Virus record (IMG/VR): IMGVR_UViG_3300037483_000119
Location: 1 to 48,176 of that record
Source of the DNA: a virus
Taxonomy: Duplodnaviria > Caudoviricetes
DNA: 48,176 nt
Reading direction: 5' to 3' (one strand)
Shown here: positions 4,056 through 48,176 of the stretch, piece by piece
Layout: each line of letters starts with the position of its first letter
How positions within the stretch are numbered: the first letter of the stretch is position 1
Notes under the pieces: model-generated
The model's database searches: none
Told to the model about the DNA's origin: nothing
Seen by the model: the letters and a program-made list of their open reading frames with translations, nothing else
Translations under genes and position numbers: made by a program

Positions 4056-4250
4056 ATGAGTGAGGTACCCGGACAGATGAAGATTCCGGTGCATTACTCG
4101 TACGGCACTCTTCCCATCATCAAAGAACTGTTCTCTTCCATCATCACCCGCTTGGAGATGCTGGCTGTTCATGTCGAGAAGGCATTGACCGTGAAGTCTT
4201 GCGAATGCGCAATGATTGCGGGACAGAGGGAGAACGACTGCAACAGTTAG
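4056..4250 (+). CDS. Hypothetical protein
   Basis: Ends just before an intrinsic terminator. Confidence 0.5.
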   Translation: MSEVPGQMKIPVHYSYGTLPIIKELFSSIITRLEMLAVHVEKALTVKSCECAMIAGQRENDCNS

Positions 4251-4263
4251 ACCGCATCACATC

Positions 4264-4299
4264 AGAGGCCCGCCGAAAGGTTGGGCCTCTCTTTTGTTT
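4264..4299 (+). terminator. Intrinsic terminator
   Basis: agaggccc-loop-gggcctct followed by cttttgttt. Confidence 0.75.
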
Positions 4300-4330
4300 G
4301 CCCATGCATCCCATCGGGGATCAACCAATC

Positions 4331-5152
4331 ATGCAGAAAGAACAGACAATCGTGATCGCACCCGATCTACAGGTGCCACTCCATGCAAGGAAGCATGTCG
4401 ACAACTTCATTGACTTCCTCAATGATTACCAGCCTTCAATGCTGGTCAATGTGGGGGACGATGCCGACTTCACCGAGGTAGGCCAATGGGTCCGAGGTCT
4501 GGCCAGAGAGTATGCGCCAACACTCCAGCGGAACGTGGACGCGACGCGCGATATCCACACACGCATGCGTGAGGCCATCGGAGATGTCCCGTACCACGTC
4601 TCTCGTTCCAATCACGGGGATCGAATGCGGAGATACATCGCTGCTCATGCTCCGGCACTCTCAACTCTTCGCTCACTGGATCTGAACGTTCTTCTCGGAT
4701 ACACAGACCTGGGGATCGAGTACCACAAGCAGCCTTTCGACATTGCCCCTGGCTGGCTCTGCGCCCATGGCGATGAAGGAACGATGTCACGCATTCCCGG
4801 TAAGACAGCTCTCGGACTAGCCGAGAAGTTCGGCAAGAGCGTGGTATGTGGTCACACACACAAAGCCGCTATCGTTCCATCAACGAGAGGATTCAATGGA
4901 ACAACGGTTAACACATTCGGCCTAGAAGTAGGCCATATGATGGATGTGAAGAAGGCTACGTACATGAAGGCCGGTCATGCGAACTGGCAAACCGCATTCG
5001 GGATTCTTCGCGTGAGAGGAAGTCGTGTCTATCCTCAACTGGTCTTCATCGAGAGTGATGGGTCGTTCTATGTGGACGGCAATTGCTATCCATCGTTTGT
5101 CAAGGAACTACGTCTTATCCATGAACTCATCAACGCAAAGGATGAAGCATAG
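4331..5152 (+). CDS. Calcineurin-like metallophosphoesterase
   Basis: DxQ, GDDAD, SNHG, HGD and GHTH motifs. Confidence 0.9.
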   Translation: MQKEQTIVIAPDLQVPLHARKHVDNFIDFLNDYQPSMLVNVGDDADFTEVGQWVRGLAREYAPTLQRNVDATRDIHTRMREAIGDVPYHVSRSNHGDRMRRYIAAHAPALSTLRSLDLNVLLGYTDLGIEYHKQPFDIAPGWLCAHGDEGTMSRIPGKTALGLAEKFGKSVVCGHTHKAAIVPSTRGFNGTTVNTFGLEVGHMMDVKKATYMKAGHANWQTAFGILRVRGSRVYPQLVFIESDGSFYVDGNCYPSFVKELRLIHELINAKDEA

Positions 5153-5153
5153 A

Positions 5154-5774
5154 ATGCTGAATGTCAGTCTTCACAGTGCTAACACGGTCACTGCCGATGA
5201 TGGTCCACTCATCACGTTCACTAAGTTCCCGAAGATTCCGCGTCTCTTCCAGACGCCTCAACAGAAGAAGGACATGAGCCCCACTCTCACCATCACCGAA
5301 AAGGTTGATGGGACGAATGGATGCATCGTCATCACGGAAGAGGGGAAAGTCGTTGCTCAGTCTCGTAATCGTTTTGTCTTCCCTGACAACGACAATCACG
5401 GCTTTGCTGCTTGGGTACAGGACAATGCGACTGCTCTATTCGAGACTCTCGGTGCAGGTCATCATTTTGGAGAGTGGTACGGGCAGGGCATCAACAGAGG
5501 CTATGGCCTCAAAGAGAAGAGGTTCGCTCTTTTCAATACCCATCGATGGGCCGAAGTAGAGGAAGAGTTCTCCATCCCTGGACTGGATGTCGTTCCAATC
5601 CTCCGATTGGTGTACGACTTCTCGATTCCGTCAGTGTTCGATGCAATCGAGTGGCTCAAAGAGCAGGGTTCATCGATCGCACCGGGGTTCATGAAGCCCG
5701 AAGGTGTGGTCATCTTCCATCATGCATCCGGCAGTCTCTTCAAGGTCCCATTCGATAAGGATCTCGATGGGTGA
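5154..5774 (+). CDS. RNA ligase (Rnl2-like nucleotidyltransferase)
   Basis: TITEKVDGTN (motif I KxDG), QSRNR, FGEW, FALFN, PEGVVI. Confidence 0.85.
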   Translation: MLNVSLHSANTVTADDGPLITFTKFPKIPRLFQTPQQKKDMSPTLTITEKVDGTNGCIVITEEGKVVAQSRNRFVFPDNDNHGFAAWVQDNATALFETLGAGHHFGEWYGQGINRGYGLKEKRFALFNTHRWAEVEEEFSIPGLDVVPILRLVYDFSIPSVFDAIEWLKEQGSSIAPGFMKPEGVVIFHHASGSLFKVPFDKDLDG

Positions 5775-6414
5775 GCCGAGGTATCCTCTGCACATGGCGA
5801 AGAACGTTGCCTATCAACTGCATCGCCAATACCCGATGGCAGAACGAGAGGATATCCTTCAAGAGCTATGCGTGTTCTGCATCGAGAACAAGCTGAACAC
5901 TCCTGACGAGAGTCTCGAAGATGACGAATACAATGCGGCATCTCAGACACTCCGCAGAGCATTGCGGAAGGCCGGTGATCGGTTCTGTCGGCAAGAGAAG
6001 GCTCTATCGAGTGGATACGATGTAGAGGATGAAGCCTTCTATTCGGTTGATCGTCTCAGGGAACTAGTGGAGACGTTCTATTCGGATGGGCTCACTGAGC
6101 ATCCTCCCATTGGGAGGACTGAGAGCGTCCGTCATACTGGAGACGGATCAGAGGCTGGTACATGGCTCTCGTCACTCATTGATGTCGAGCGGGGGCTATC
6201 CCTTCTCTCTCCTGAGTACAGCCATCGTCTCAGTGACCGATACAAGACCAATGCTCATATGAGTGACTCAGACTATGGATATGCCCATGGACTGACAGAG
6301 GATCAAGTGAGAGGTAGGACCAGGAGCGCTCTGAGAGCTCTCCAGAGGCACCTAGGGGGATCCAACCCCTGGAACCGTGGTCCTACCCCTCACAGCCAAG
6401 CTGACCAGGCTTAG
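5767..6414 (+). CDS. Sigma factor-like DNA-binding protein
   Basis: EREDILQEL region-2-like segment and C-terminal HTH-like segment (LIDVERGLSLL...LTEDQVRGRTRSALRALQRHLGG). Confidence 0.65.
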   Translation: MGEPRYPLHMAKNVAYQLHRQYPMAEREDILQELCVFCIENKLNTPDESLEDDEYNAASQTLRRALRKAGDRFCRQEKALSSGYDVEDEAFYSVDRLRELVETFYSDGLTEHPPIGRTESVRHTGDGSEAGTWLSSLIDVERGLSLLSPEYSHRLSDRYKTNAHMSDSDYGYAHGLTEDQVRGRTRSALRALQRHLGGSNPWNRGPTPHSQADQA

Positions 6415-6595
6415 CGTTGATCTGAGAGCCTTGCGGGACGCAACCGCATTCTCATGAGGCTCTCAGTCATTCTCTTCAATCGACTCTTCTTCATCCTCCG
6501 ATGCTTCGGGGAAAGCAAGTACGATGATCTTGCTTCCTTCTCTACGACAGGGAAGACCCATCCATGCATCATCACCCGTCGATGGTACCTGCTCT

Positions 6596-6937
6596 TCAGC
6601 CATCGATCTCCAGTGGGTTGACCGGATACCAAAGGATTGCGAAGGCCCAAATGTGCCGTTCGGTCTCCGATTGACGGAAGGGCGCACTTCCATGGCAGTG
6701 ATCGCCACGAATGATCTTCGCCCTTATCTCGTGCATACAGACTGGTGCTTTCCAACCACCAGTGAAACGATCCATCTCCTTGAGCAATAGCTGCTCAGAG
6801 TCGAAGACGGTCGCCCTTGCGGATTCATGGTCGGCATTGGTCACCGACCAATCAACCCATGCGTGCGCGGGTCCTTCCACGGGCGGCATGGTCTCTTCAT
6901 CCCATGGACCCATGTACTTGAAGAGCAGGTACGTCAC
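6596..6937 (-). CDS. Hypothetical protein
   Basis: ORF in leftward early array. Confidence 0.6.
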   Translation of the reverse strand: MTYLLFKYMGPWDEETMPPVEGPAHAWVDWSVTNADHESARATVFDSEQLLLKEMDRFTGGWKAPVCMHEIRAKIIRGDHCHGSAPFRQSETERHIWAFAILWYPVNPLEIDG

Positions 6938-7048
6938 TTCCTACGCCACCTTCTTCTGCCACACCGTGATGGCGTGCGACTTCGCGTTCGCTGACGTGTA
7001 GTCGAAGCTGTCCGTGTCTCCGTACACGTTGGGGTTCTCGTTCATTGT

Positions 7049-7357
7049 CTATTCACCCCCCTTCATCATCTCGTCAACCATGTCCCTGAGTAGGGGCAAT
7101 TGGTTTGGGTCGAAGAGCAGCGAGATCACTATGCCCTTGTTCGACCGCATCTGAATGATCGGCAGCATTTCGTCACCGAAAGGCATCGAACCATCCATGC
7201 GATCAATGATCGCCATCTGCCCCTTGCGGAAACCATCGACAATGAACAAATCATCCATGTCAACGGTACAGATTTGCTTACCTTCTAGCATCCACTCGCT
7301 TTCTCCCCGTAGATGGATAAAGTCTGGCGATCCGATTGAGCCAAGAAGTACGCGCAT
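7049..7357 (-). CDS. Hypothetical protein (true start may be near 7291)
   Basis: ORF in leftward early array. Confidence 0.55.
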   Translation of the reverse strand: MRVLLGSIGSPDFIHLRGESEWMLEGKQICTVDMDDLFIVDGFRKGQMAIIDRMDGSMPFGDEMLPIIQMRSNKGIVISLLFDPNQLPLLRDMVDEMMKGGE

Positions 7358-8350: not shown

Positions 8351-8772
8351 TTCTCCCTCTCAATGCGCATCTCAGTAGCGCTGTCGCGCTTCATGCGCTG
8401 CTGCTTGGTGTTGTACTTAGATTCCTTGTGGCCGAATAGAAAGTTTGGCTCTTCACCCCCTTTGGGTGCGTGTCCGGGGCAGAAGATGCCCCACTTGCCG
8501 AAGTACCAGCCATGCGCAACAGCCAGCACCTTGCATTCGCCGTCTGTGCGATCCTCCTTGCCTGGCCTTGACAAACGAATGCGTCCGAGCTTACGGCAAT
8601 CATCACCATCGCAGGAGTAGACCATGTGAGTCTTACCCCTGGCTCCGTTCAATGTCTCTTCCTCTCCACTAGTCAATTCCATGAGTGGCTTTGCCCAATC
8701 GGAATGCATGCATTCATTCCTCTCGGGTGCCTTCTCCCTAACGTCCGAATGAACGAACAGAGCAACGCTCAC
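8347..8772 (-). CDS. Zn-binding hypothetical protein (CD..DC...GW...FCPGH)
   Basis: Cys/His motif; operon context. Confidence 0.6.
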   Translation of the reverse strand: MSVALFVHSDVREKAPERNECMHSDWAKPLMELTSGEEETLNGARGKTHMVYSCDGDDCRKLGRIRLSRPGKEDRTDGECKVLAVAHGWYFGKWGIFCPGHAPKGGEEPNFLFGHKESKYNTKQQRMKRDSATEMRIEREK

Positions 8773-8804
8773 CAGTAATGGGTGGTGAGCATCACTCTGT
8801 CAGG

Positions 8805-9059
8805 TCACTCGACAATCGCTTCTTGGATCCTCCCTCCGAGGATCTCGATCGCACCTTCCGGAAGCTCTTCGATGACCTTCCGGAACAGGGTCATCACGTC
8901 CCATGGGTCGGACGGGTCTTCCGTCGCCTCAATGAGGAAAGCCCGGTATTCCTCTCCGGTCTGGAGGGCCTTCTTTCCATCGGTCTGGTAGAAGGTCTCA
9001 CCCTCGTAACCTTCCTCCTTCAGGCTCTCGACCAATGCGTCGATGATCGCGTGGATCAC
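8805..9059 (-). CDS. Acidic hypothetical protein
   Basis: SD gaggag; GTG start. Confidence 0.65.
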   Translation of the reverse strand: MIHAIIDALVESLKEEGYEGETFYQTDGKKALQTGEEYRAFLIEATEDPSDPWDVMTLFRKVIEELPEGAIEILGGRIQEAIVE

Positions 9060-9090
9060 TCGATTGTCTCCTCTCTCTATTCAAATGAAC

Positions 9091-9333
9091 CTAGGCCGCT
9101 GCCGAAATCTTTCCGGTGACATGGTCCATAAGAAGCTCTTGGGCCTTACGGAACGTCCGACATGTGTCGAACTCCCTACCATTGCGAGACAGGCAATAGT
9201 AGGTCGTTTCGTTGGCTTCATTGGTTCCCTTGAGGATAGATCCGTACATGACTCCATCAAGGTATGCCCTCCACACCCTCGGAGTGGCTTCAATCAATTC
9301 GTATCCATTCATCGGATACCTCCTATACCGCAA
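9091..9333 (-). CDS. Hypothetical protein
   Basis: SD aggaggt before internal ATG (MNGYEL). Confidence 0.6.
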   Translation of the reverse strand: MRYRRYPMNGYELIEATPRVWRAYLDGVMYGSILKGTNEANETTYYCLSRNGREFDTCRTFRKAQELLMDHVTGKISAAA

Positions 9334-9359
9334 AAAGCCCCACTCGAATGAGTGAGGCT
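9331..9359 (-). terminator. Intrinsic terminator
   Basis: Minus strand agcctcactc-attc-gagtggggct-tttt. Confidence 0.75.
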
Positions 9360-9388
9360 GATTGCGATGCGGTTGGAGCGTGGGGGAA

Positions 9389-9955
9389 TCAGTCTTCCCA
9401 GGTGGGTCGGGTGGTGTTGCTGAACTGCTCGTACTTCAGCATGGCCTCTTCGGGGAGAGACCCTGCCTTCTTGCAGATGTTGTTAGTGACGCCCCACGTG
9501 CGGCATGCCTGGTTCCATTCCTGGCGCTTCGGCCCTGCCTTTCCCTGTCCGGATCCGTTGCTAGCGGTCCCGGTGGACTTGGACGCCGTGCGCGTGGGGG
9601 CGATGTTGAACGGGCGGCGGCCCTCTCCCCATTCCCCATCCTCGTCCCGTTCGGCCACCGGGATGGTGTTGAGCTTGTCGAGCACGGCCATGTAGGGCTT
9701 GCGGATGACGATGCAGGCTTCCGTCTGGAAGATCTGGAGACGGCTCTTCACGGTCCCATCGTCGTTGGTGTCTTCCACCAGCTCCGTAACGTCCTTGGCA
9801 TCGTCCCCCTCACCAATGGTCTTGGTGACTTCCTTCCAGACGGGAACGTGGGTCACGTACTCGAAGGTTTCCACGGTGTCGGGAGAGCAAGCCTTGTCGC
9901 CCTCCTTGTGACCCTCGCAGGAAACGATGTACTGGATGACCTGCTTACGTGCCAT
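9389..9955 (-). CDS. Lsr2-like protein (C-terminal DNA-binding-like domain, RGR hook altered)
   Basis: MARKQVIQYIV N-terminus, low-complexity linker, NQACRTWG...KAGSLPEEAMLKYEQ C-terminus. Confidence 0.65.
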   Translation of the reverse strand: MARKQVIQYIVSCEGHKEGDKACSPDTVETFEYVTHVPVWKEVTKTIGEGDDAKDVTELVEDTNDDGTVKSRLQIFQTEACIVIRKPYMAVLDKLNTIPVAERDEDGEWGEGRRPFNIAPTRTASKSTGTASNGSGQGKAGPKRQEWNQACRTWGVTNNICKKAGSLPEEAMLKYEQFSNTTRPTWED

Positions 9956-9977
9956 GGTGAATCCTCTCTGAATGGGC

Positions 9978-10268
9978 TTACAGCCCGTGTGCCTTGAACA
10001 CCGCTTCGATGTCCACGGATGAAACCATACCATTGGGGGCATTCTTCGCGAGTGCCCTGACTTGCTTCCCTGCCTCCGTCATCCGCTTGATCCATGGGAT
10101 CTTGGGAGGGAGATCGGGGAAGCCCTTTGTTTCCTGGCATCGCTTGCAACCCTCTGCGATTACTTCATCAGCGTCATCAGTGATGCTTTTGACGAATCGA
10201 CCGCAATGAGCTTTAAACGACGTGCCTCTTTGTATTGCCTCATTGGGCATCGGATGCCAATGAATCAT
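9978..10268 (-). CDS. Hypothetical Zn-binding protein (H...AHCG...CKRC)
   Basis: SD aagggag; Cys/His motif. Confidence 0.6.
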   Translation of the reverse strand: MIHWHPMPNEAIQRGTSFKAHCGRFVKSITDDADEVIAEGCKRCQETKGFPDLPPKIPWIKRMTEAGKQVRALAKNAPNGMVSSVDIEAVFKAHGL

Positions 10269-10344
10269 CGTTACTCCCTTGATAGCGACAAAGAGAGAGA
10301 CCCGCACAATCGCCGCGCGGAGCGGTTATGCGGGCTTACCCCCG

Positions 10345-11064
10345 TTATCCCTGGTTCGAACCCTGTAGCTCTTGCTGGATCTCCCAAGCGGGACACTTGG
10401 TAAGTTTCATGTGACGTCGAATGGGATCCGTACCGTTCGGCAAGAAGCCCATTCCGCAATCACACTTCACCAGCTTGATCGTTGGATCCTCTAGGACCCA
10501 TTCGATATCCCATGGGTCCTTATCGTGAACCTTGTTCGCGTGTGCCTTTCGTCCGTAGAGTGAAGTGTAAGACTTGCACCCTGGAAAGGTACACGCGACT
10601 CTCACGTCTTCAGACGGGTTCCTCGTTCGTGAAGAAGTTTTTTGTACTTCTTCCCGTTGCTTTGGAACGGTTACCGGCCTCGACGCGCTCTGAATGAGCT
10701 TCTCGCCAAGGTCCCTAGGAATGACCGGATTGTGCATCTTTGGGACCGGCGTAGGGTTCACGATCGCTCGGGCCGCTTGCGCGACCGGATGAACCGAGGA
10801 AGGGGATTCGACCAATCGGCCGGTTGTACCAGCGATGCCATTGCCCGGCTTGAACTGGAAGTTCTCCAGCCTTCTGCCGAACGTCCTGGCATACCGGATC
10901 AGCTTCGATTCGTCATTGTGCGTAGAGCACAAATCGATCTCGTAAGCTTGCACGCTCCCCTTGGCGTACATGAGCCAAACGACGTTGATTCCCTCTCGGG
11001 TGACGTCATCGTGCTCTTTGCATACGTCGCAATCAAGATTGACAATGATCGTCTCTCTGCGCAC
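10345..11064 (-). CDS. Protein with Lsr2 dimerisation-like N-terminus and C-terminal zinc finger(s)
   Basis: YEIDLC...RYARTFGRR motif; C-terminal CTFPGC..H...H and CDCG..H...C. Confidence 0.6.
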   Translation of the reverse strand: MRRETIIVNLDCDVCKEHDDVTREGINVVWLMYAKGSVQAYEIDLCSTHNDESKLIRYARTFGRRLENFQFKPGNGIAGTTGRLVESPSSVHPVAQAARAIVNPTPVPKMHNPVIPRDLGEKLIQSASRPVTVPKQREEVQKTSSRTRNPSEDVRVACTFPGCKSYTSLYGRKAHANKVHDKDPWDIEWVLEDPTIKLVKCDCGMGFLPNGTDPIRRHMKLTKCPAWEIQQELQGSNQG

Positions 11065-11128
11065 GACGTGATCCTTTCTCTTGGTATTGAATGGATCGCA
11101 AGCGCACCCATGATGAGTACGCTTAGGT

Positions 11129-11677
11129 TCATTCAAGCCAATCAGGTATCTCTGCCTCAAGGATTGAACGAGTCTCCTTGAGATCGTCAAACTCTTGCAT
11201 GCTTTCGGCAAGATGCTTCTTGATGCGCTCGATCCTGATCTCTCGATCATCGATCAACTCAAGCACCCGCCTATGTGCGGACACCTTACGCCACTCCGGA
11301 GTGCTCTCCTGCCATCGGTTCAATGCGGCCTTAGCGGTCGCCACGATGGACACGAACACTTCATGATCGGATTTGAGTGGCTTACCAGTGTCGGCATTGA
11401 GAACAGCCGACTTAGGCAACACAAGGAACCATTTCCCCCTGTGAATGCCTCTCTCGTATTGGGTGACCGCATCCTTGAATTCAAGGTCAATCAGATACTC
11501 TTTGTCCTTGAACGTGTATACGTCACCGGTTGCATGAATGGCCGAACCACTACGCACGGCAATGGAAGGAACGTAACGATCCCCCATTCCATTGTAAGCA
11601 GCGACTGGTTCGATCACCAGCCATTGGCCATTCTTGAGCTGAATCTTGGACTCATAGAATCCCAGCTTTTCGCCCAT
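11129..11677 (-). CDS. Hypothetical protein with C-terminal coiled coil
   Basis: Conserved RBS motif cagggaaggattca upstream. Confidence 0.7.
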   Translation of the reverse strand: MGEKLGFYESKIQLKNGQWLVIEPVAAYNGMGDRYVPSIAVRSGSAIHATGDVYTFKDKEYLIDLEFKDAVTQYERGIHRGKWFLVLPKSAVLNADTGKPLKSDHEVFVSIVATAKAALNRWQESTPEWRKVSAHRRVLELIDDREIRIERIKKHLAESMQEFDDLKETRSILEAEIPDWLE

Positions 11678-11709
11678 GGTGAATCCTTCCCTGTTAATAG
11701 TCTGCCCGG

Positions 11710-11770
11710 TTGAGCGGCATTGAAAGGCCGTCATCCTTAATGGAGGATGATTGCCTTACGACACTGTCAA
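11710..11770 (-). repeat. Conserved intergenic hairpin element, copy A
   Basis: ttgacagtgtcgtaaggc-aa-tcatcct...aggatga-cg-gcctttcaatgccgctcaa on the minus strand. Confidence 0.85.
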
Positions 11771-12051
11771 CGGTAGTGCTCACGAATGAGCACGTTCTTG
11801 AGCGCGAGACCCATCATCTCAAGTGAGCGGTCTTGCTGCTCAATCAAGAGAGTCAGCTCTTCGACACGCGACTCTTGGATTCCGAACATTGCGGCGATGA
11901 CAGAAGCCATGCCGTCAATGGTCGATTCGAGCATCTCGCTTCTCTTCTCACGATTGAGCGAACGCGAGACGAGATACATCTTCGCAATCTCAGTCGCTCG
12001 TGAGTCGGGAATGGTGAAGTACTGGCCTGGCCTCTTGTTCGGAGTAGTCAC
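11767..12051 (-). CDS. Hypothetical protein
   Basis: GTGA overlap with the upstream gene; stop lies within hairpin copy A. Confidence 0.65.
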   Translation of the reverse strand: MTTPNKRPGQYFTIPDSRATEIAKMYLVSRSLNREKRSEMLESTIDGMASVIAAMFGIQESRVEELTLLIEQQDRSLEMMGLALKNVLIREHYR

Positions 12052-12227
12052 AACACTCTCACCGGTCCAACGAAAGTCCCGTTCACGTGCAAGCAATCCA
12101 CGCAAGTTGCTACGGTCGCATCCGGTTCGGTGATCCCGACGAGATGCGTACAGAGCGTCCGCAGCTCATTTTCTGGATTGATGATGTGGACGAGTCGGGT
12201 TCCGCACTTTGCGCGACAGAACTCCAC
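12048..12227 (-). CDS. 59-aa Cys-rich protein (MEFCRAKCG...TLC...TCVDC)
   Basis: GTG directly after the conserved RBS motif; below the ORF-track cutoff. Confidence 0.6.
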   Translation of the reverse strand: MEFCRAKCGTRLVHIINPENELRTLCTHLVGITEPDATVATCVDCLHVNGTFVGPVRVL

Positions 12228-12257
12228 AATGAATCCCTTCTCTGCGGTTGTCTGCCA

Positions 12258-12319
12258 TTGATAGGCATTAATGAACCGTCATTCGCAATGGGGAATGATT
12301 GTTCAATGATGCTGATCAA
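12258..12319 (-). repeat. Conserved intergenic hairpin element, copy B
   Basis: ttgatcagcatcattgaac-aa-tcattc...gaatga-cg-gttcattaatgcctatcaa. Confidence 0.85.
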
Positions 12320-12627
12320 CGAACCCAAATGGATGCCCAACCCTCTACCGGTCCACGTGCGCCATGGTGCCGCACGTATGCGCGGAGCTCTTCCAATGCG
12401 CGTGAGTCATCCGCGCTTGGTCCTGCCTCCTGCTCTGCATAGATCTCGTCAAAGATCTCTACCGGGTCGTCAATCGCGCCGGTAGATGCGAGCTTCGCGA
12501 AGTGCATCCCCTTGACTCCAGCGGACTGATACCACGATGCAATCGTGCGTGCGCATCCATCACTGATGATTTCAACGCGCTCACGTGCGAAGTCCACTTG
12601 AGCCTTTACGGCCAATGCGTCACTCAT
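12316..12627 (-). CDS. Hypothetical protein (ARTIASWYQS motif)
   Basis: Conserved RBS motif upstream; stop lies within hairpin copy B. Confidence 0.7.
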   Translation of the reverse strand: MSDALAVKAQVDFARERVEIISDGCARTIASWYQSAGVKGMHFAKLASTGAIDDPVEIFDEIYAEQEAGPSADDSRALEELRAYVRHHGARGPVEGWASIWVR

Positions 12628-12829
12628 TGAATCCCTTCCCTGTTGAGGGGTGATAGCGGCACTCCCACCGTTCACCATCAATGCGGCCCGAATTGGTGGC
12701 CACTAGGTTCCCGTAGGGAGTGCCGCAAGCTAACGTCACCCCTGATACCTCCTGTAAGCCCCTCAGATCGATTCTGAGACACTCACACAGCCGTCCCTAT
12801 GGGTTGCATAGGGAGACCATGTCAACGTC

Positions 12830-13051
12830 TCACCGTTGATTTGAGAGATCCCGGTAATCGTGGATCTCTAGGCCGAACTCATCAGCGACGGCCTTGATCG
12901 CTGCGAGATCGAAGGATTCGCCCGTCTTCCAATAGCAATTGGTATCCAGGTTCGCAGCGATGCACGCTACTTCCTGGCCATCGCGTATCGCCTTGTCGGA
13001 GAAGAGATAGATGTCATCTCCTGCTGTGAGTACGAATACATCACCGCTCAT
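12830..13051 (-). CDS. Hypothetical protein
   Basis: Operon context. Confidence 0.6.
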   Translation of the reverse strand: MSGDVFVLTAGDDIYLFSDKAIRDGQEVACIAANLDTNCYWKTGESFDLAAIKAVADEFGLEIHDYRDLSNQR

Positions 13052-13054
13052 TGG

Positions 13055-13363
13055 TCATCCGTTCCAGTAGAGAACTTTGATGTTCAGGCACGCGCCACCA
13101 TCTCCGATCTGACGAGTCAGCTCGAAATCCTTTCGCGCGTTGATCTGGTCTTCAATCCATGCCTTACAGGCAAGGATTGCCCAGTCCTCCATTCCGGAGA
13201 ATCGCCCCAACTCAGCCGCATCCCCCAACGACATCAGGGAAAGCAGGGTAGCGGTTGCCTTAAAGGGAGATGAGAACTCATCCACCGATTCGGCACCGAT
13301 GGCATGAGCCGCATTCCTGGCACCAGGAACGTAGAACTCCGTACGAATGATGATCTCCATCAT
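13055..13363 (-). CDS. Hypothetical protein
   Basis: Conserved RBS motif upstream. Confidence 0.65.
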   Translation of the reverse strand: MMEIIIRTEFYVPGARNAAHAIGAESVDEFSSPFKATATLLSLMSLGDAAELGRFSGMEDWAILACKAWIEDQINARKDFELTRQIGDGGACLNIKVLYWNG

Positions 13364-13397
13364 TCAATCCTTTCTCTGTGGTGTTCACTTCTGCCGA

Positions 13398-13452
13398 GTG
13401 ATCAGCATTAATGAACGTTCATTGCTAGTGAACGCTCAATGATGCGTATCAA
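13398..13452 (-). repeat. Conserved intergenic hairpin element, copy C (short apex)
   Basis: ttgatacgcatcattgagcgttca...tgaacgttcattaatgctgatcac. Confidence 0.8.
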
Positions 13453-13841
13453 CCGATCACGCGAACGTGACTCACGTTCTCAATGATGGGCATCATCGTG
13501 AACCCCTCATAGCGGCTCACGAGACACGGGTGACCGTTCGAAATGTAGATGCCGAACATCGGGAACTTAGAGCATCCCCAACCCTCGTAATCGTCGTACC
13601 GAAAGGAGATCAACCGGTTGACGTAACGCGCGTAGTGCTCAACCGCTCCCAGCATCCAAGCGTCACGCTCATTCCAGGGTTCCGCACCGTGTTGGACGAA
13701 CCATGGTGAACGATCCCAGAACACCGGGCATCCCGTTCCGGGTACGCGCCACGTAGGCGGACGTTCCCGCAACTGATAGTTGAGATAGGAAGGGTTCCGT
13801 TCCTGCCAGTAATCGACAGTGGACCTCTGTCCATCGATCAT
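13449..13841 (-). CDS. Hypothetical Trp-rich protein
   Basis: Conserved RBS motif upstream; stop lies within hairpin copy C. Confidence 0.65.
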   Translation of the reverse strand: MIDGQRSTVDYWQERNPSYLNYQLRERPPTWRVPGTGCPVFWDRSPWFVQHGAEPWNERDAWMLGAVEHYARYVNRLISFRYDDYEGWGCSKFPMFGIYISNGHPCLVSRYEGFTMMPIIENVSHVRVIG

Positions 13842-13924
13842 CTCTTGAATCCTTTCCTGCCCATTCATCGGGCGAATGAGCACAGCCACACACAACAGGA
13901 TGCATTGCGTATGACTGAATCCAT

Positions 13925-14152
13925 TCACACGAACGTGTCTCGGTATTCCTGCCACTGATCGGCGAACCGATCGGCCATCGGATCCGAGTAACCGCGCGCG
14001 TCAATCTCCTCTGCGTACTGGTCACGGTCTCGCCGTTCCAACTGGTCAACCGTGACACCATCCCACTCTGCGAGATGCCAGACACAGAGCAGGTCTGTAT
14101 CGGGACTCTCGTCATTGGGGTTCTTGCACCATGGGCACATCAGCCGTTCCAT
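13925..14152 (-). CDS. Small CxxC...CxxH protein
   Basis: CPWC...LCVWH. Confidence 0.6.
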   Translation of the reverse strand: MERLMCPWCKNPNDESPDTDLLCVWHLAEWDGVTVDQLERRDRDQYAEEIDARGYSDPMADRFADQWQEYRDTFV

Positions 14153-14427
14153 CCTTCGCTCAATGGCCCTAGGGGCATCCCCAGGACCTTACGGGCAGCA
14201 TCGTAAGCAGATGCCGCAATGGTGTTCTCGCCATTTGCGTACGTGACGCACCATGGCGATAGCCAATTGCTCGGATCCGGAACGGCCGAACCAATCGTGC
14301 CCACGAGACGAACGTTGAACCGGTAACCGCCGGTTGCGTCGCACAGACGGTAAGCCTCTGCGAAACGCACGATTCCGGCATGTTCACGGACCATGGCCTC
14401 TGACACGGGGATGTCAGTGACGCTCAT
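14140..14427 (-). CDS. Hypothetical protein
   Basis: ATGA overlap. Confidence 0.6.
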   Translation of the reverse strand: MSVTDIPVSEAMVREHAGIVRFAEAYRLCDATGGYRFNVRLVGTIGSAVPDPSNWLSPWCVTYANGENTIAASAYDAARKVLGMPLGPLSEGWNG

Positions 14428-14630
14428 TCGTCATCACTCCCGTAGTTCATCAGCCACACCATTGGGGGATCCCCATTGATACGGCCGTTGGCATCGATCA
14501 TGTCCCACGTGAATGGGATGCCCTTACGCTTGGCAATGCGAGCGACAGTGATCATCTCGCCGGTTGGATTGAATCCATCCGGAATGTTGAGGTCACTGCG
14601 CAGCTTGATAGCCAACTCAGTGGGAGTCAT
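14424..14630 (-). CDS. Hypothetical protein
   Basis: ATGA overlap. Confidence 0.6.
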   Translation of the reverse strand: MTPTELAIKLRSDLNIPDGFNPTGEMITVARIAKRKGIPFTWDMIDANGRINGDPPMVWLMNYGSDDE

Positions 14631-14944
14631 GCGGCACGCTCCAATGAGAAGGCCGGACGTTCGGTGTAAGGGTCACCCGTTACCGGATCCCACTCCGCAC
14701 GTTCACGCCATGCCACGCACGCCTTGTGATGCGCAATGAGCGCGTCACGGACGTCTTCACACGTGGCGAACGGGCCAACCCATGGGGCGTACAGATCCGT
14801 TCTGGCGAACCATCCGAGAGTGTCTTTGTCCTCACGAATGGTCGCCAGGAAACCCACTTCAATGGGTGTCTCTGACGTCATGACCATCTGCCTATGACCA
14901 TCCTCCCGATATTCCGGGTAGACGTCATACTTGGTCGGTGCCAT
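14627..14944 (-). CDS. Hypothetical protein
   Basis: Conserved RBS motif upstream. Confidence 0.7.
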   Translation of the reverse strand: MAPTKYDVYPEYREDGHRQMVMTSETPIEVGFLATIREDKDTLGWFARTDLYAPWVGPFATCEDVRDALIAHHKACVAWRERAEWDPVTGDPYTERPAFSLERAA

Positions 14945-14977
14945 CTTGAATCCCTTCTCTGTGATGTTCTGCCCTGA

Positions 14978-15038
14978 TTGAGCGGCATTAATGAGCCGTC
15001 ACCCGTCATGAGGGGTGATTGCCCAATGACACTGTCAA
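14978..15038 (-). repeat. Conserved intergenic hairpin element, copy D
   Basis: ttgacagtgtcattgggc-aa-tcaccc...gggtga-cg-gctcattaatgccgctcaa. Confidence 0.85.
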
Positions 15039-15455
15039 TCATCGTGCGTTGCGGCATGAGCCGCATTCGATCTGCCCCTTAGGCATCATTGAGTCCTTAC
15101 GGCACACGGTGCATGTCCGGTTGGCGATGCGGTAATCAAAGAGCGGCTCTTTGGGGATAGGCACGTATTCGGGTGAGTTGAGCCATGCAATGTGAGCATC
15201 GATCTTCGCTTGATACTCAGCAACGATGTCAACCTTGACCGGCTTACGCACAGTGCGCTTGCGAGGCTCTGAGTTGGTCGCTACGGGCTTGACGGGCTTG
15301 TCCTTAGCCAGAGTGCCAGCCTGCCTCTGTGCGGCCTTGAAAGCCGCAATGCGGGCTTCTCTGTGGTTGAGCGCGGGCTTAGGAGCGGCCTTGACCCTGG
15401 TCTTGGGACCAAGGATGACGTCCCGACCACGACCGGTCTTGCACTTGGAACACAT
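15039..15455 (-). CDS. Basic protein with N- and C-terminal CxxC motifs; first gene of the leftward array
   Basis: SD gagggag; CSKC...CTVC...CGSC. Confidence 0.65.
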   Translation of the reverse strand: MCSKCKTGRGRDVILGPKTRVKAAPKPALNHREARIAAFKAAQRQAGTLAKDKPVKPVATNSEPRKRTVRKPVKVDIVAEYQAKIDAHIAWLNSPEYVPIPKEPLFDYRIANRTCTVCRKDSMMPKGQIECGSCRNAR

Positions 15456-17248
15456 GTCAATCTCCCTCTGTTAGGTCATGCCAATCAGCATCACTGTCAT
15501 TGAGACAGGAACACTGAAAGGCAGGGGATCGTAAGTGACTCATGCACGCAGTGTCCTACTCGATACACATGAGCAGAACGCGCGACTCATTGAGTCGTGG
15601 TAATCCCCTGCCTCAACAGAGAAAGAAAGGATTCAGATCAATGCATGTCATCAGGTCATCTCTAAGGCATTGGCCCTCATGGCCTTTCGGCCTAGCCATG
15701 CGGTCAAGATGTCGCCGGTTGCGAGGTACAGAAGCAACGTCGCGCTCGCTCGCTTTGATCCGGTTCAGCAATGGATGATCCATGCACTTGATCTATTCCC
15801 ACACTCCATTGGTCACCTAATGGCGATCAAGTCGCTAGGTGTTGGCTACCTCGGTTGGTAGAGGGACGCTGTCATGCGTGTGTGAAGTGGTCGCACTGTG
15901 ATTCCCCCATCTAGGGGGACAGAGGGGTTTTCAGCCTGACTCAACCGTCTTGACGAATCGAATCGGCACTACCCCGTTTCCCTTCACATTGACGCAATCG
16001 CTATGCGTCCATTCCCGACCTACAGGTAATGGTCGGAGTGTGGGTCATGCTCGGCGCGGTGCCCGAATGAATCCGGGGCCGTAACCAAGCGCGCTGTTGA
16101 GTTCTCAAGAAACGAATCGGTTCATCGGATGTAGTCAACGCAATCCCCGAATGACTAGAGGGAGATGCTTTGCGTGACTCTCGCGAACCGAGCCATTCAG
16201 TTAGCGGCCGGTGAAGCTAGCCGGTGTTGCTGTCGAACTGGTGGAACGATGCCGACATTGCTCGATAGGCTCGCAACCTGTCAATAGATTCGAGAGTGTG
16301 AGCTGCATCACACTCAATCGATCATGGCCTGACCTGCGAGGATGCATTGACCCATAACAAGATTGGTCTAGATCATCACTCGAACAGTCGTTCGAAAAAG
16401 CCCCCTCCAGGGGCTCAATGGGCGAATGAGAGGGGATGTAGATCAAGGCCCTGACCAGCAATGATCTCAAGCCGTCCCAATGCAATGCACTCACAGTGAT
16501 AATGCCTGGTCAGAGGCATGCCATGGGGAGCTGAGAGCAGGACTCTCACAGACTGTGATGGGCTAGTCACTGTAAGTGAGAAATTCGCCGGCCTTTGGCG
16601 TAATCGATCTTGGACAGAGAGTGATAATCCCAGGTCAACACCATGATCAAATCAATCCGGTATGACCTACCAGAAAGGTAGGAAAGAGCAAGATCAATGA
16701 TCTTGTGTAGGGTGCATATGCATGATGCACACTGATCATGTGTAGAGTACATACTGTCTGCGATACGCAGACGTAGCGAATCTATGTGATCTTGGCCCAA
16801 CAAGATCACGATCAAGATCAAATGACCAAGATCACTGGGCACCTGGTCGCCCTGCCTCACGTGCGTGAGGGCAGGCCAGGCACCATGATCACTTTCGTGT
16901 TCTGGTGGGGACACGCAGAGCCCGAGCAGGAGAGCAGGAACGGAACGATCTGTTCCGATGCACTCGGAACGGAATACTCTGTTCCAATGGGTCATCGAAC
17001 GCACGTTCGACCGGGGGCTTTTAAGCTGGGAGGCAGTAGTTCAATCCTATCCACTCAAGAATATTTCCTAATTCCCTTTACCTGTTCGCGCGTGTCATTG
17101 ACTCTCTACTTACTATTTTTCTCGATGATTGAATGCAAAGCTTTCATATAGAACCCCAGGTCATTGATGCCATCAAAAACTTTACTGATTGGACGTCACG
17201 GTTTCGGCGTGTCGTAGGGGGTTATATAGAGAGAGCTTCTTTTAAAAG

Positions 17249-17285
17249 CACTCAATCACTACAATCAAAACCACTCAATCACTAC
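17249..17285. repeat. 14-bp direct repeat cactcaatcactac x2
   Basis: Copies at about 17249-17262 and 17272-17285, upstream of terminase. Confidence 0.7.
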
Positions 17286-17535
17286 CGGCCATCGGCCGGA
17301 TAGAGAGTAACCAGCCCTTCAAGGGGCTGGATCGATAGAGAGCAGTGAAGAGTAACCCATCAGCCCTTGAAGGCTGATGGAGTGAAGAACACTAGAGACT
17401 CTCTAACAGCTCACTACGTTCGCTGTGTGAATCAATGATTCTGTGGCCCTTCGGGTAATCATTCATTCGCCCCCGAACAACGTTCGGATTCCCACCATGC
17501 ACGAACCACCCATCATCCACTAGCAGAGAAGAGCA

Positions 17536-31735: not shown

Positions 31736-31810
31736 GTGAGGGTAAGCCAAATGGAAGAGCTATCGCTATTTAATGCGACGGTCATGAGGGTTCGATTCCC
31801 TCTCCTTGCG
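31736..31810 (+). tRNA. Degenerate tRNA-like element (possibly derived from tRNA-Lys TTT)
   Basis: Acceptor gtgaggg/tccttgc, D-loop with GG, perfect T-arm gaggg-ttcgatt-ccctc; non-canonical anticodon arm tcgc-tatttaat-gcga; no encoded CCA. Confidence 0.5.
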
Positions 31811-31930
31811 CTCCTGAATCAGACAGACCGGCCCATGATTCAGCGTATCTAAGTCCGGTAGTAGAAGCCTTCAAAGGATCCCCGATCTTTGAAGTGGTCT
31901 ACGTCCATCCAATAGATAAAGGGAGAATGC

Positions 31931-41333: not shown

Positions 41334-42554
41334 CTACTGGACAGCTCGAAGCCATCGCTTGGGGGCGATGATGTTCGTTGCCGGTGCAGCGATAGGGAGT
41401 CTCTCCGGTCCTGCGGGACCGTTGTACTCTTCGAATCCCGGCAGACCATCCCTGAACTCGTCATCGAACCATTCGAGCCCCTTCACTGCCTTACGGTACT
41501 TCTCTTCCTCCTTGGTCATCTTGCGGTAACTCTGTTGAATGGTGTCGGCCTTCCGATGGTTGGATCCGGTAGCAGCAAGCCGGATCGCATCGGTATAGCC
41601 GTTCTCATCGAACGTATCGACCTGCTTGTTAATCATGTGATGCCTCGCGATGTGGCACCCCTGTCCCTCCTTGTGGATCCCAGCGGCCTTGAGAGCGTCT
41701 CTGAACCACACTCCCATTCCTTCCTTGGGCTTCCTCCTGTGGGGCTCGATGTGCCATGGCCTCACTGTGTCGTATCGCACGCTGCCAGTGTGTTTGACGT
41801 TGGGGAACACGTACCATTCCCCATGCTGGTCGATGCTTCCAAGCAGCTGCTTGTCGCATTGGGCCTGATACCAAGCCTTGTACGCTCCGAAGATCTGGAC
41901 CGTTTCGGGATTGAAGTAGTACGTTCCCCGACGAGTGCCCTTCTCGTTCCAAAACCCCATCTTCCAGTTGGGGAGATCGATGTCATTCCATCGGAGTCTT
42001 GCGATCTCACCAATCCTCCTCTCAGTGAGGAGGGTAATGAAGATGAGGTAATACTTCATCTCCCCGAACTGCTCAAGGGTAGTGGTGAGCAGATGCTTGA
42101 TCTGCTCGTCGGTGTACTCGACCCGTTCTTCACGGATCTCGTTGGGCATCTTCCCCTTGATGGGGTTCTTGAACTTGCGGACGACGTTCGTGGGCATGTG
42201 CTTGCCCATGAGTTCGTTGTCCAGCATCCAGTCAAAGAACGTTTGAAGCGCGACCTTTGCCTTACCTCGGGACGAGATCAGTCGTTCCGAGTAGTAGGCA
42301 ATGAAGGTAACGACGTGTTCCCGGTTGACATCTTGGGTAGTGATGTCGTCCTTCATCTTCATGTAGACGTCGTGGCTGACACGGCCATCCTCTTCACGGG
42401 CGTTCTTCCCGCATTGGATGCCAAGGATCAGCTTGTGGAACGTCTGAAGAGTGGACCGGTAGGTCGTGACGGTTGATTCACCCCACTCCTTTTCCTCGGT
42501 GTTCTCCTTTAGGAAAGCATCGATTGCTTTTCTCAGTTTCATTGGTCTCCCCAT
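41334..42554 (-). CDS. int: Tyrosine recombinase / integrase
   Basis: Core-binding domain; TERRIGEI (R), EKG (K), HIARH, NHR..DTIQQSY (H/Y). Confidence 0.88.
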   Translation of the reverse strand: MGRPMKLRKAIDAFLKENTEEKEWGESTVTTYRSTLQTFHKLILGIQCGKNAREEDGRVSHDVYMKMKDDITTQDVNREHVVTFIAYYSERLISSRGKAKVALQTFFDWMLDNELMGKHMPTNVVRKFKNPIKGKMPNEIREERVEYTDEQIKHLLTTTLEQFGEMKYYLIFITLLTERRIGEIARLRWNDIDLPNWKMGFWNEKGTRRGTYYFNPETVQIFGAYKAWYQAQCDKQLLGSIDQHGEWYVFPNVKHTGSVRYDTVRPWHIEPHRRKPKEGMGVWFRDALKAAGIHKEGQGCHIARHHMINKQVDTFDENGYTDAIRLAATGSNHRKADTIQQSYRKMTKEEEKYRKAVKGLEWFDDEFRDGLPGFEEYNGPAGPERLPIAAPATNIIAPKRWLRAVQ

Positions 42555-46655: not shown

Positions 46656-47501
46656 GTGTTTCCCCTCTTCCGATCGCTCGATCAAGGAGCGGAAGCCGGT
46701 GAGTCATTGCCGGTTGTATGGAAGACGCTTCACAATGCAGGCATTGACATCTTCAGAGGAGACGTCACCATGGTTGCCGGTCCACCAGGATGCGGTAAGT
46801 CGATGCTCGCTTTGCAGCATGCCATCAAGAGCAAGGTTCCAGTGCTCTACATCATGATGGACATGGGGCGTTACCTGACTGCCGTTCGAGTGGCAGCCAT
46901 GGTTACAGGGGAACCGATCACCAAACTCAAAGAAGCGATGAGTGAGATCCCTGTACGTGACAAGTACAGGGGTATCATTGCCTCTCACATAGACAATCTC
47001 TACATCGCCTATGCCTCTCGTCCTTCGCCCGATCAGGTGAAGGAACTTGAGTTGGCATTCGAAGAGGTATGGGGATGCCCTCCCTATGCCATCTATGTGG
47101 ACAACATGATGAACCTGTACTCAGGTTCAGAGAATGAATGGACTGGGCTCCGTGAACTCTCTCATGTGTTCCACTTCTTCGCTCAAGACCTGGGATCCGC
47201 AGTGGTGGAGCTTCACCATGTGAACCTTGGCGGATACAACATCAACAACCCTGCTCCATTGCATGCCATCAAGGGACAGATCACGGAGCTACCGGCATTG
47301 ATCCTCACTGTCGCGAAAGCCGATCGCCGGATGCATGTGTGTCCGGTGAAGAACAGGCATGGGCAATCGGATTACTCGGGAGGCAAGTTCGTGACGCTGG
47401 ACTTCCAAGAGGAGTGTGGGCGAATCACTGACATCGTTCATACGCCTATCCCCGTTCCGGCTCACGTGCCGGATTGGATGTACCAGGTAGCTGATGCCTG
47501 A
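46656..47501 (+). CDS. DnaB/RecA-like replicative helicase
   Basis: Walker A GPPGCGKS, Walker B IYVDN, LHH, VKNRHG. Confidence 0.88.
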   Translation: MFPLFRSLDQGAEAGESLPVVWKTLHNAGIDIFRGDVTMVAGPPGCGKSMLALQHAIKSKVPVLYIMMDMGRYLTAVRVAAMVTGEPITKLKEAMSEIPVRDKYRGIIASHIDNLYIAYASRPSPDQVKELELAFEEVWGCPPYAIYVDNMMNLYSGSENEWTGLRELSHVFHFFAQDLGSAVVELHHVNLGGYNINNPAPLHAIKGQITELPALILTVAKADRRMHVCPVKNRHGQSDYSGGKFVTLDFQEECGRITDIVHTPIPVPAHVPDWMYQVADA

Positions 47502-48176
47502 TGTGCCAAATCGATTGTTTCGGCTGTCAGATCTGCATCGAGTACACGCTTGAAGACCAATACGGCCCGGAGTGGTGGGATGCCATTGAAGATGCTGGGG
47601 AAGAGGGTCCACGAAAAGACATGGTGCAACTGTTGCAAGTCGAAGAGATCAATCAAACGTCGCGAGGATCGCGAGTGGCGGAAGGAACAGATCCAGAGTG
47701 AGTAAGACGATCCGATGCAAGTGCGGTCGAAGACTGACCGTGAACCATCGCAGCCACAAGCCCGCATGCACATGCGGAAGGGTCATCCCAGCGGTTGACC
47801 TCACCGCCCTATGGGCGTCCACCTATGACGCATCCAGTTATGACAGTGGATGCGACTCCGGAGGATCATTCGATGGTGGGTCGTGCTCCGCATGAAGAAG
47901 TTCAACGGAGGAAACGTCTGCTTCATCTGTGATGGATGCAGAGTCATCACTGGCTATGAGTCTCTCGGAGCAAAGGATGAACCATGCTCCGAATGCAAGG
48001 GCAAAGGACCATTCAAGTCCACGATCGACAGGGTTCGAGCGATGTTCCGTGGGGATCAATAGAGCATGGATCCCAACGACCTAAAGCGCTACTTCGAGAA
48101 GTGGAAAGAGACTCTCGATTTCGCTTACGAGTACTTCACCAAACAGTCTGAGAGCTACGCAGCTCAGCACATCAAT
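47185..48176. repeat. Terminal direct repeat, copy 2 (diverged allele, 90 bp shorter)
   Basis: Matches 1-1082; contains second alleles of the small genes (47501-47701, 47698-47895, 47892-48062). Confidence 0.95.

Follow-up and report, generated by a model that had tools for sequence, protein, structure and literature searches.

Virus record IMGVR_UViG_3300037483_000119 carries an early region in which small genes are separated by long, irregular hairpins. The whole record, 48,176 nucleotides (nt) in length, was analysed and is called the window here; positions given without a locus name are positions in that record. Four of the hairpins, copies A (11710..11770), B (12258..12319), C (13398..13452) and D (14978..15038), belong to one family on the minus strand, and they are real and more than chance. 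They probably work like the RNase III sites of phages T7 and SPO1, a comparison drawn from length, geometry and operon layout. An added step, in which the downstream product of the cut would be capped by a second, much smaller hairpin, is a modelled extension whose chances fall just short of even.

An initial annotation of this DNA had proposed the four hairpins, and folding and alignment place them exactly where it did. Each is a hairpin of 55-62 nt closed by a basal clamp, TTGA/TCAA (TCAC in C), and the TTGA itself supplies the stop codon (TGA) of the upstream gene in A, B, and C, whereas in D that codon lies 3 nt ahead of TTGA. Behind every hairpin come GGCAGA, a purine-rich ribosome-binding site (RBS), and the start codon, with 22-26 nt between hairpin and start codon, and none of the copies is followed by a U-tract. 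Within the stem, a C·A and a U·U mismatch are invariant and enclose a single pair, A-U in B, C, and D and G-C in A; 10-13 ladder steps lie above this distorted zone. The covarying stems listed by that annotation are all present, as is the AA/CG internal loop of A, B, and D, which C lacks (its upper stem is 10 base pairs [bp] long). The apical loops, 8 nt each, share a YYCAUURM-like sequence.

Measured against shuffled sequences, the four copies fold with z-scores of -3.65, -3.78, -2.99, and -2.19. Two-sided changes occur at 9 of 23 pairs, where column shuffles lead one to expect 3.3 and none of 500 shuffles reaches 9; the count comes from only four paralogues, and the structure itself was derived from the same four copies. 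Searches for further members yielded little. A strict sequence pattern of the element had no match in viral contigs, and neither the 16 loci found with a looser pattern nor the 2 found with a metagenome pattern were scored by the hairpin model (both metagenome matches fall inside a low-GC bacterial coding gene). The model itself, run over 19, 8, 51, and 3 sources, gave one weak match outside the window (L008 2032-2102; E 0.08 and 0.03), and blastn of window positions 9600-17500 against 50,697 phage records gave none. The family is thus not found convincingly elsewhere, and its covariation therefore rests on the four copies. No Rfam family reaches or approaches its gathering score at any of them, two chance matches falling elsewhere in the window. 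The idea of an undescribed, cis-acting structured RNA therefore survives as to structure and the absence of an Rfam match, but the kind of element is not new, for similarly built hairpins stand at early junctions of T7 and SPO1.

One argument for RNA does not hold. The minus strand had been said to be the only one on which wobbles become G·U, yet A·C oppositions (7) are as frequent in the ladders of A to D as G·U (6). In predicted stability, moreover, the plus strand surpasses the minus strand for A and B, equals it for D, and falls slightly short of it for C. The strand assignment rests instead on gene context and on relatives of the window.

By sequence, the window is a temperate Beephvirinae-like actinophage, with a terminase 71-72% identical to those of three IMG/VR records (L006-L008), 64% identical to those of prophages in two Actinocorallia species, and 47-48% identical to those of Streptomyces cluster BF podoviruses (Beephvirinae). 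This relatedness makes an actinomycete host likely, perhaps one from the Streptosporangiales. The minus-strand array of small open reading frames (ORFs; 8805..15455) occupies the same place as the early region of phage Manuel, and in L007, L008, and five BF phages most of the long early junctions contain a hairpin of comparable length. In the shared build, an upper part of about 13-16 steps rests on a distorted zone, below which comes a basal helix, in many cases with the stop codon inside it. The zone may be mismatch-pair-mismatch, a 2x2 loop, or a 4x4 loop; the mismatch-pair-mismatch form recurs across relatives with varying mismatch bases. What the relatives keep, then, is the build of the hairpin and not its sequence.

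Across 65 distinct hairpins from the window and its relatives, a set that includes orthologues, the mRNA strand carries 61 G·U against 17 A·C oppositions and is the more stable strand in 55, and this joint bias points to RNA. Most of them (51 of 65) closely follow a stop codon, and 14 stand more than 33 nt away. Two other kinds of junction hairpin were seen in this survey. At the last early junction of BF phages stands a hairpin of another type, highly stable and with pyrimidines in its loop, which has an RBS directly behind it and lacks the refolding described below (L019 38054-38179; L034 2897-3003; L035 2537-2640; L037 2340-2443). In another actinophage, two junctions share a two-hairpin element of a different family (L184 4660-5110, minus strand).

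The initial annotation had offered three roles for such an element: an RNase III-type processing site as in the T7 early transcript, a protein-binding or antitermination motif, and a single-strand recombination site. The first fits best in length, stem geometry, operon layout, and host enzyme. For the E. coli enzyme, one study describes a minimum helix of 11 bp above the cut and preferences for particular bases in defined boxes, and adds that loops or mismatches limit cutting to one strand and leave a protective 3' hairpin (PMC1540722); a second study agrees (PMC3867540). In Streptomyces coelicolor, RNase III is described as cutting at or beside a 4x4 internal loop, and RNase J as a 5' exonuclease that prefers monophosphate ends (PMC10126417). 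Genes of the RNase III and RNase J families were present in all four actinobacterial genomes tested, including the host of the closest named prophage. Copies A to D all lie between a stop codon and an RBS, with promoter-like sites, as judged from pattern matches alone, only at the head of the array. Some 12-15 ladder steps, mismatches included, lie above the predicted 5'-arm cut, against a minimum of at least 11 bp. If the 3' arm were cut at AA^UGCY, the preferences known from E. coli, which may not be those of the host, would be satisfied at proximal-box position 2 (A-U or U-A in 4/4), box 1 (G-C in 3/4), box 4 (A-U in 3/4), and distal-box position 1 (U-A in 4/4).

This predicted cut has a counterpart in the sequence that follows the stem. 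In all four copies, the conserved GGCA of GGCAGA is complementary to the UGCY of the 3' arm, the intervening loops varying in both sequence and length, and the small hairpin formed by UGCY and GGCA is mutually exclusive with the lower stem. In the uncut RNA the small hairpin has a pair probability of 0.00-0.23, and this rises to 0.55-0.98 when the RNA begins 0-4 nt before UGCY. The change is from 0.14 to about 0.57 in copy A (11703..11719), from 0.00 to 0.98 in copy B (12253..12267), from 0.23 to about 0.93 in copy C (13392..13407, with 6 pairs and a 4-nt loop), and from 0.03 to about 0.73 in copy D (14970..14987, UGCC...GGCA), all on the minus strand, the hairpin of copy D being the predicted 5' end of the cut product. 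Predicted access to the RBS is the same with and without the cut, and a cut that activates translation was rejected on this ground. That the small hairpin acts as a classical antiterminator was rejected on theoretical grounds: only 3-8 nt separate GGCA from the stem, so that polymerase would still enclose it.

Similar second folds occur beyond the family. Of 77 junctions listed by hand, 62 were distinct and had a hairpin at least as stable as -22 kcal/mol; in these the 30 nt that begin 12 nt past the loop were compared with shuffles (p<0.05), the control being the mirror stretch on the 5' side. The second fold beats shuffles in 30 of 62 junctions, whereas the mirror stretch does so in 3 of 62, a comparison weakened by the orthologues among the junctions and by the mirror being coding sequence, hence differently constrained. 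The window, L007, L008, and Manuel had been inspected before this test; in three BF phages that had not (Immanuel3, FlowerPower, and WRightOn), the figures were 8/21 and 1/21. In tail swaps, a further control, the second fold was significant in 15-17 of 61. Its position was assessed in 58 of 64 distinct hairpins, leaving out 2 without a four-pair alternative and 4 of the last-junction or terminator-like kind. In 31 of these 58 it begins 14-16 nt past the apical loop, which is where 11 bp plus a 2-nt overhang would put the new 5' end, and copies A to D all have it at one and the same ladder position. Several hairpins of L007 and L008 carry a 4x4 loop, with the alternative fold beginning at it. 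Elements with both folds also occur 100-140 nt from any stop codon.

Other hairpins of the window fit into this picture to varying degrees. A long hairpin was present in all 10 of the long spacers examined, 5 of them of other sequence. A fifth, diverged copy, E (8739..8814, minus strand), was found with the family model (24.9 bits, E 0.004); it has a nearly perfect stem, the shared upper stem, an 8-nt loop, and a second fold at p 0.03. Three minus-strand junction hairpins of unrelated sequence also scored in the second-fold test: 11081..11141, which has the TTGA/TCAA clamp (p 0.005, no four-pair alternative found), 12656..12726, which lies about 100 nt from the upstream stop codon (p 0.005), and 13862..13935 (p 0.025), the last two with an alternative fold. 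Near the end of the array, a G+C-rich hairpin followed by a T run (9320..9378, minus strand) is a likely early terminator, although a terminator scan did not list it. Copy E, the unrelated junction hairpins, the small second hairpin, and the boxA-like motif described below had all escaped the initial annotation.

The array as a whole thus consists of one promoter-like site, a boxA-like motif, junction hairpins, and a U-tailed hairpin near its end. T7 is laid out in much the same way, with promoters, a boxA-like motif at 814, irregular hairpins of 52-68 nt between stop codon and RBS, and a terminator at the end, and its hairpins have upper stems of 9-13 pairs above a distorted zone. The T7 record carries no annotation of its RNase III sites. 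T7 differs in sequence and host, in having an asymmetric loop where the window has symmetric single mismatches, and in mostly lacking the second fold (p 0.39-0.82 in five of six spacers tested and 0.06 in one). Site R1.1 is taken from PMC1540722.

SPO1, too, has a repeated family of early-junction hairpins, with a mismatch, a single pair, a loop, and an upper stem of 10-11 bp, in a host with RNase J; the sequences are unrelated to those of the window. The early junction hairpins of SPO1 and SP82 serve as RNase III sites. In the 17 SPO1 spacers tested, 6 related junction hairpins carry a small second fold at a fixed place, the start of the 3' product (L186, after 5722 and 7113 on the plus strand and after 12794, 12527, 12273, and 11852 on the minus strand). 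SPO1 differs in that its promoters and terminators include many internal ones.

The head of the window's operon shows how such a long transcript might be made. Between 8500 and 17500, the minus strand has a single promoter-like site, the likely early promoter (16255..16284; pattern TTGACN, 17-18 nt, [CTG]ANNNT), which a stricter sigma-70 scan missed. The relaxed pattern matches 2-3 times, in leaders only, in Manuel, Immanuel3, FlowerPower, and a Kineococcus prophage; L008 has no match. In the window, the promoter-like site is followed, at a distance of about 170 nt, by a boxA-like copy of an actinobacterial 16S rRNA-leader motif (16092..16114, minus strand), which is identical over 23 nt to one 16S leader from Actinocorallia and is a likely loading site for Nus factors. 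The roughly 800-nt early leader (15520-16250, minus strand) contains further long hairpins, such as that at 15520-15610, and run X1, one of two sets of DNA contigs examined and perhaps the source of the window itself, carries a variant in which the stretch 16151-16233 is replaced.

The 12-nt core of the leader motif is exact in 8 of 159 loci, namely the window, six BF phages, and the Kineococcus prophage, and always on the mRNA strand of an early leader. Exact copies of the motif lie at L019 44386-44397 and 43980-43991, in the leaders of L034, L035, L036, L037, L038, and L063, and at 6001-6019 of a further IMG/VR record, L184; L076 has a copy with one mismatch. Among genomes of the order, 30 of 31 contain the core, as do all 13 Streptomyces genomes, with 1-7 copies each against 0-2 for the reversed control. 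In 6 of 11 loci scanned the motif is followed by 16S (in one case a fragment); four others either belong to the prophage or break off where, or close to where, their contig ends. At one locus (L164/L175; G006 contig 6, about 5700-7100), what follows the motif is no more than a fragment of 16S and, 1.2 kb further along, a type II hammerhead ribozyme, possibly a mobile element with an rRNA-derived leader.

The boxA label is inferred from position and from likeness to the NusB-binding consensus of B. subtilis, as given in two papers (PMC13753749; PMC8632103). This likeness to the rrn boxA, the NusB/NusE site, applies to the leader motif and not to the four hairpins, so that antitermination, one of the roles first proposed, suits the leader but not copies A to D. 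In the hosts the motif may also serve as an arm of the pre-16S stem. Within the phage, the best pairing partner for it (-33.3 kcal/mol) was no better than those in 20 shuffles (-28 to -36 kcal/mol). Host pre-16S stems were also considered as a template for the hairpins and set aside, their pairings being too irregular for comparison.

Taken together, these features suggest the following sequence of events. Host polymerase, aided by Nus factors, would make one long polycistronic early RNA, and RNase III would cut each hairpin, probably in the 3' arm only, at the U of UGCY or up to a few bases before it. The upstream mRNA is predicted to keep a 3' stem against 3' exonucleases. The 3' arm would then refold with GGCA, so that the downstream mRNA would begin with the UGCY...GGCA hairpin, a predicted shield against RNase J and 5'-end-dependent RNase E. 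As a side effect, for which there is some direct evidence, shared junction sequences would act as boundaries for gene swaps.

We offer the fuller version of this scheme tentatively: a single RNase III cut would leave a blunt 5' hairpin on the downstream mRNA and a 3' stem on the upstream mRNA. Such self-capping sites, conceivably a device of phages whose hosts have RNase J, would sit in a boxA-fed early operon made like pre-rRNA and cut into armoured, swappable messages, a generalization we put forward with some reserve. It would further imply, with the same caution, a design that recurs with unrelated sequences in the window, its Streptosporangiales-like relatives, cluster BF, and SPO1, and that is absent from T7.

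Several observations weigh against part or all of this scheme. In A to D the small hairpin has little stability (-4.3 to -5.6 kcal/mol), reaches only p 0.10-0.25 singly, is not significant in tail swaps, and shows just one, one-sided, base change; the second folds of SPO1 are likewise not significant singly (p 0.08-0.40). Among 39 held-out hairpins from 15 loci, the second fold was not enriched (5 vs 7 for the mirror). This set, drawn with automatic gene calls mostly from more distant prophages plus genome G001, comprised the 39 of 48 junctions with a hairpin of -25 kcal/mol or better, and the Kineococcus prophage was its clearest positive. Because of this lack of enrichment, the second fold is a lineage feature and not a rule. 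Proximal-box position 3 and distal-box position 2 fit the E. coli preferences, again perhaps not the host's, in none of the four copies, and across the clade the profile at the predicted cut register is flat, with no base preference. The second fold is present in L007 and L008 even though both lack an exact leader motif, and for A and B it is the plus strand that gives the more stable fold. Finally, a review credits the stability of SP82 mRNA to its RBS (PMC7509114).

The hairpins might also step expression down along the array without any cut, whether by terminating transcription intrinsically with no U-tract, by pausing polymerase, or simply by blocking exonucleases, with the leader motif giving partial readthrough. 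This is unlikely, though it has several points in its favour. Poly-U tails are said to be unneeded in Streptomyces, with the early terminators of phiC31 as the case in point (PMC2602773), the hairpins do stand close behind stop codons in most junctions, and related prophages have simple hairpins of lesser length at some of their junctions. Set against this, neither the relaxed nor the sigma-70 scan found a host-type promoter-like site at or after any of A to D from which transcription could restart, the invariant mismatches weaken the stem, and purine-rich bases follow it in place of a U-tract. Mycobacterial polymerase, moreover, does not stop at U-less hairpins (PMC3993855). The initial annotation had dismissed ordinary terminators on the missing U-tract, an argument that is sound for the mycobacterial enzyme but weak in Streptomyces. 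The phiC31 early region offers a likeness, namely actinophage intergenic hairpins without U-tails; there, in work ascribed to Ingham in 1995, U-less terminators reportedly precede phage-specific promoters. The window differs in that its stems carry fixed mismatches and stand 22-26 nt from the start codon.

A doubtful alternative is a two-state switch of translation or stability, in which the lower stem is pried apart by a terminating ribosome or by some protein bound there, and the small hairpin forms without a cut. The position of the stop codon in the basal clamp of A, B, and C would suit such a switch, as would the mutual exclusion of the two folds and the common sequence of the 8-nt loops. 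Predicted RBS access is the same in both states, however, both folds are found far from any stop codon, as noted above, and related phages keep the geometry with unrelated sequence.

Recombination as the primary role, with folded single-strand or repeat sites making the small genes exchangeable cassettes, is improbable. L007 and L008 differ by six gene gains or swaps, five of which have an end that coincides with a hairpin junction, and an additional gene in one of them sits between two copies of a single hairpin; the phage of the window also has a tyrosine integrase (41334-42554, minus strand, by protein family match). In run X1, a minor contig of 375 nt (depth 3.7) follows the window through the 3' part of copy B (window 12230-12280), then departs from it immediately behind GGCAGA and enters a different reading frame, a candidate gene swap seen in a single contig. 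Yet 9 of 12 L007/L008 breakpoints fall at hairpin junctions where 14 of 20 junctions bear hairpins, so that junctions are used as swap boundaries with no enrichment at the hairpins, and swaps end at the shared RBS or the hairpin base and not at one fixed bond. In the early regions of L007 and L008, a common RBS motif of about 16 nt precedes the majority of genes, and several gene swaps end there. The G·U bias toward the mRNA strand across relatives also speaks against a DNA role.

Integron attC sites, likewise imperfect palindromes of about 60 nt between small genes, are defined by cores of the form RYYYAAC...GTTRRRY. Here the core order is reversed, there are no strict cores, and the spacer to the RBS is the element's own. 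Identity with attC was rejected, none of the four copies having these cores on either strand, and the integrase scored 23.1 bits against a cut-off of 265 for integron integrases. The single-strand recombination sites first proposed thus find no support as a primary role. The PeSL elements of T4-type phages are alike in that they recur between genes, next to small ORFans, in a variable part of the genome where genes come and go at them (PMC2839356 and PMC4122927). They differ in having an early promoter and a working terminator, where A to D have neither promoter-like site nor U-tract and breakpoints are unenriched; identity was rejected, TTGACA occurring in A and D without a -10 at 17-18 nt.

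Last, a double-stranded DNA operator or cruciform with two inverted half-sites for a dimeric phage regulator is very improbable: the model does match the copies on the plus strand (E 2e-6 to 0.009), they fold as well there, and the phage encodes a sigma-like protein, but the arms change in concert within each copy with no single half-site sequence kept, the spacing in C differs by 7 nt, and relatives keep shape, not sequence.

The rest of the genome offers few further clues. None of 17 ORFs of the minus-strand early array matches PHROGs or Pfam, a search for relatives of one early-region protein gave none, and no phage RNA polymerase was found among the window proteins tested. The divergent tyrosine integrase had no tblastn match in the 50,697 phage records and none in genome contigs. 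A terminal repeat of about 1 kb (1-894 and 47185-47988), its copies only 94-97% alike, suggests a circularly permuted assembly from mixed strains. A metallo-phosphoesterase adjoins an RNA ligase at 4199-5774 on the plus strand, likely an RNA repair pair; the window has only one doubtful tRNA (31736-31811), in contrast to about 20 in Manuel.

Processing of the T7 kind has long been known, and junction hairpins of the same build are already found in T7 and SPO1. We found no description of the window's hairpin family, the cluster BF junction hairpins, the second fold, or the boxA-like leader in a literature search of limited coverage, and papers on SP82, SPO1, or cluster BF may describe parts of them; the main text of the Abafar paper does not mention a hairpin, terminator, repeat, RNase, or stem-loop. 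If RNase III processing is borne out, these junctions would provide the RNase III of actinobacteria, an enzyme about whose recognition rules little has been established, with several dozen short substrates of natural origin, including some in the cultured phages Manuel, WRightOn, Immanuel3, FlowerPower, and Abafar, which grow on laboratory Streptomyces with existing rnc and rnj mutants. The same element, 80 nt long, could be moved between constructs as an insulator where several genes are to be expressed together in Streptomyces. If capping by the small hairpin also proves true, it would explain how phages escape the decay that 5'-monophosphate ends invite in hosts with RNase J.

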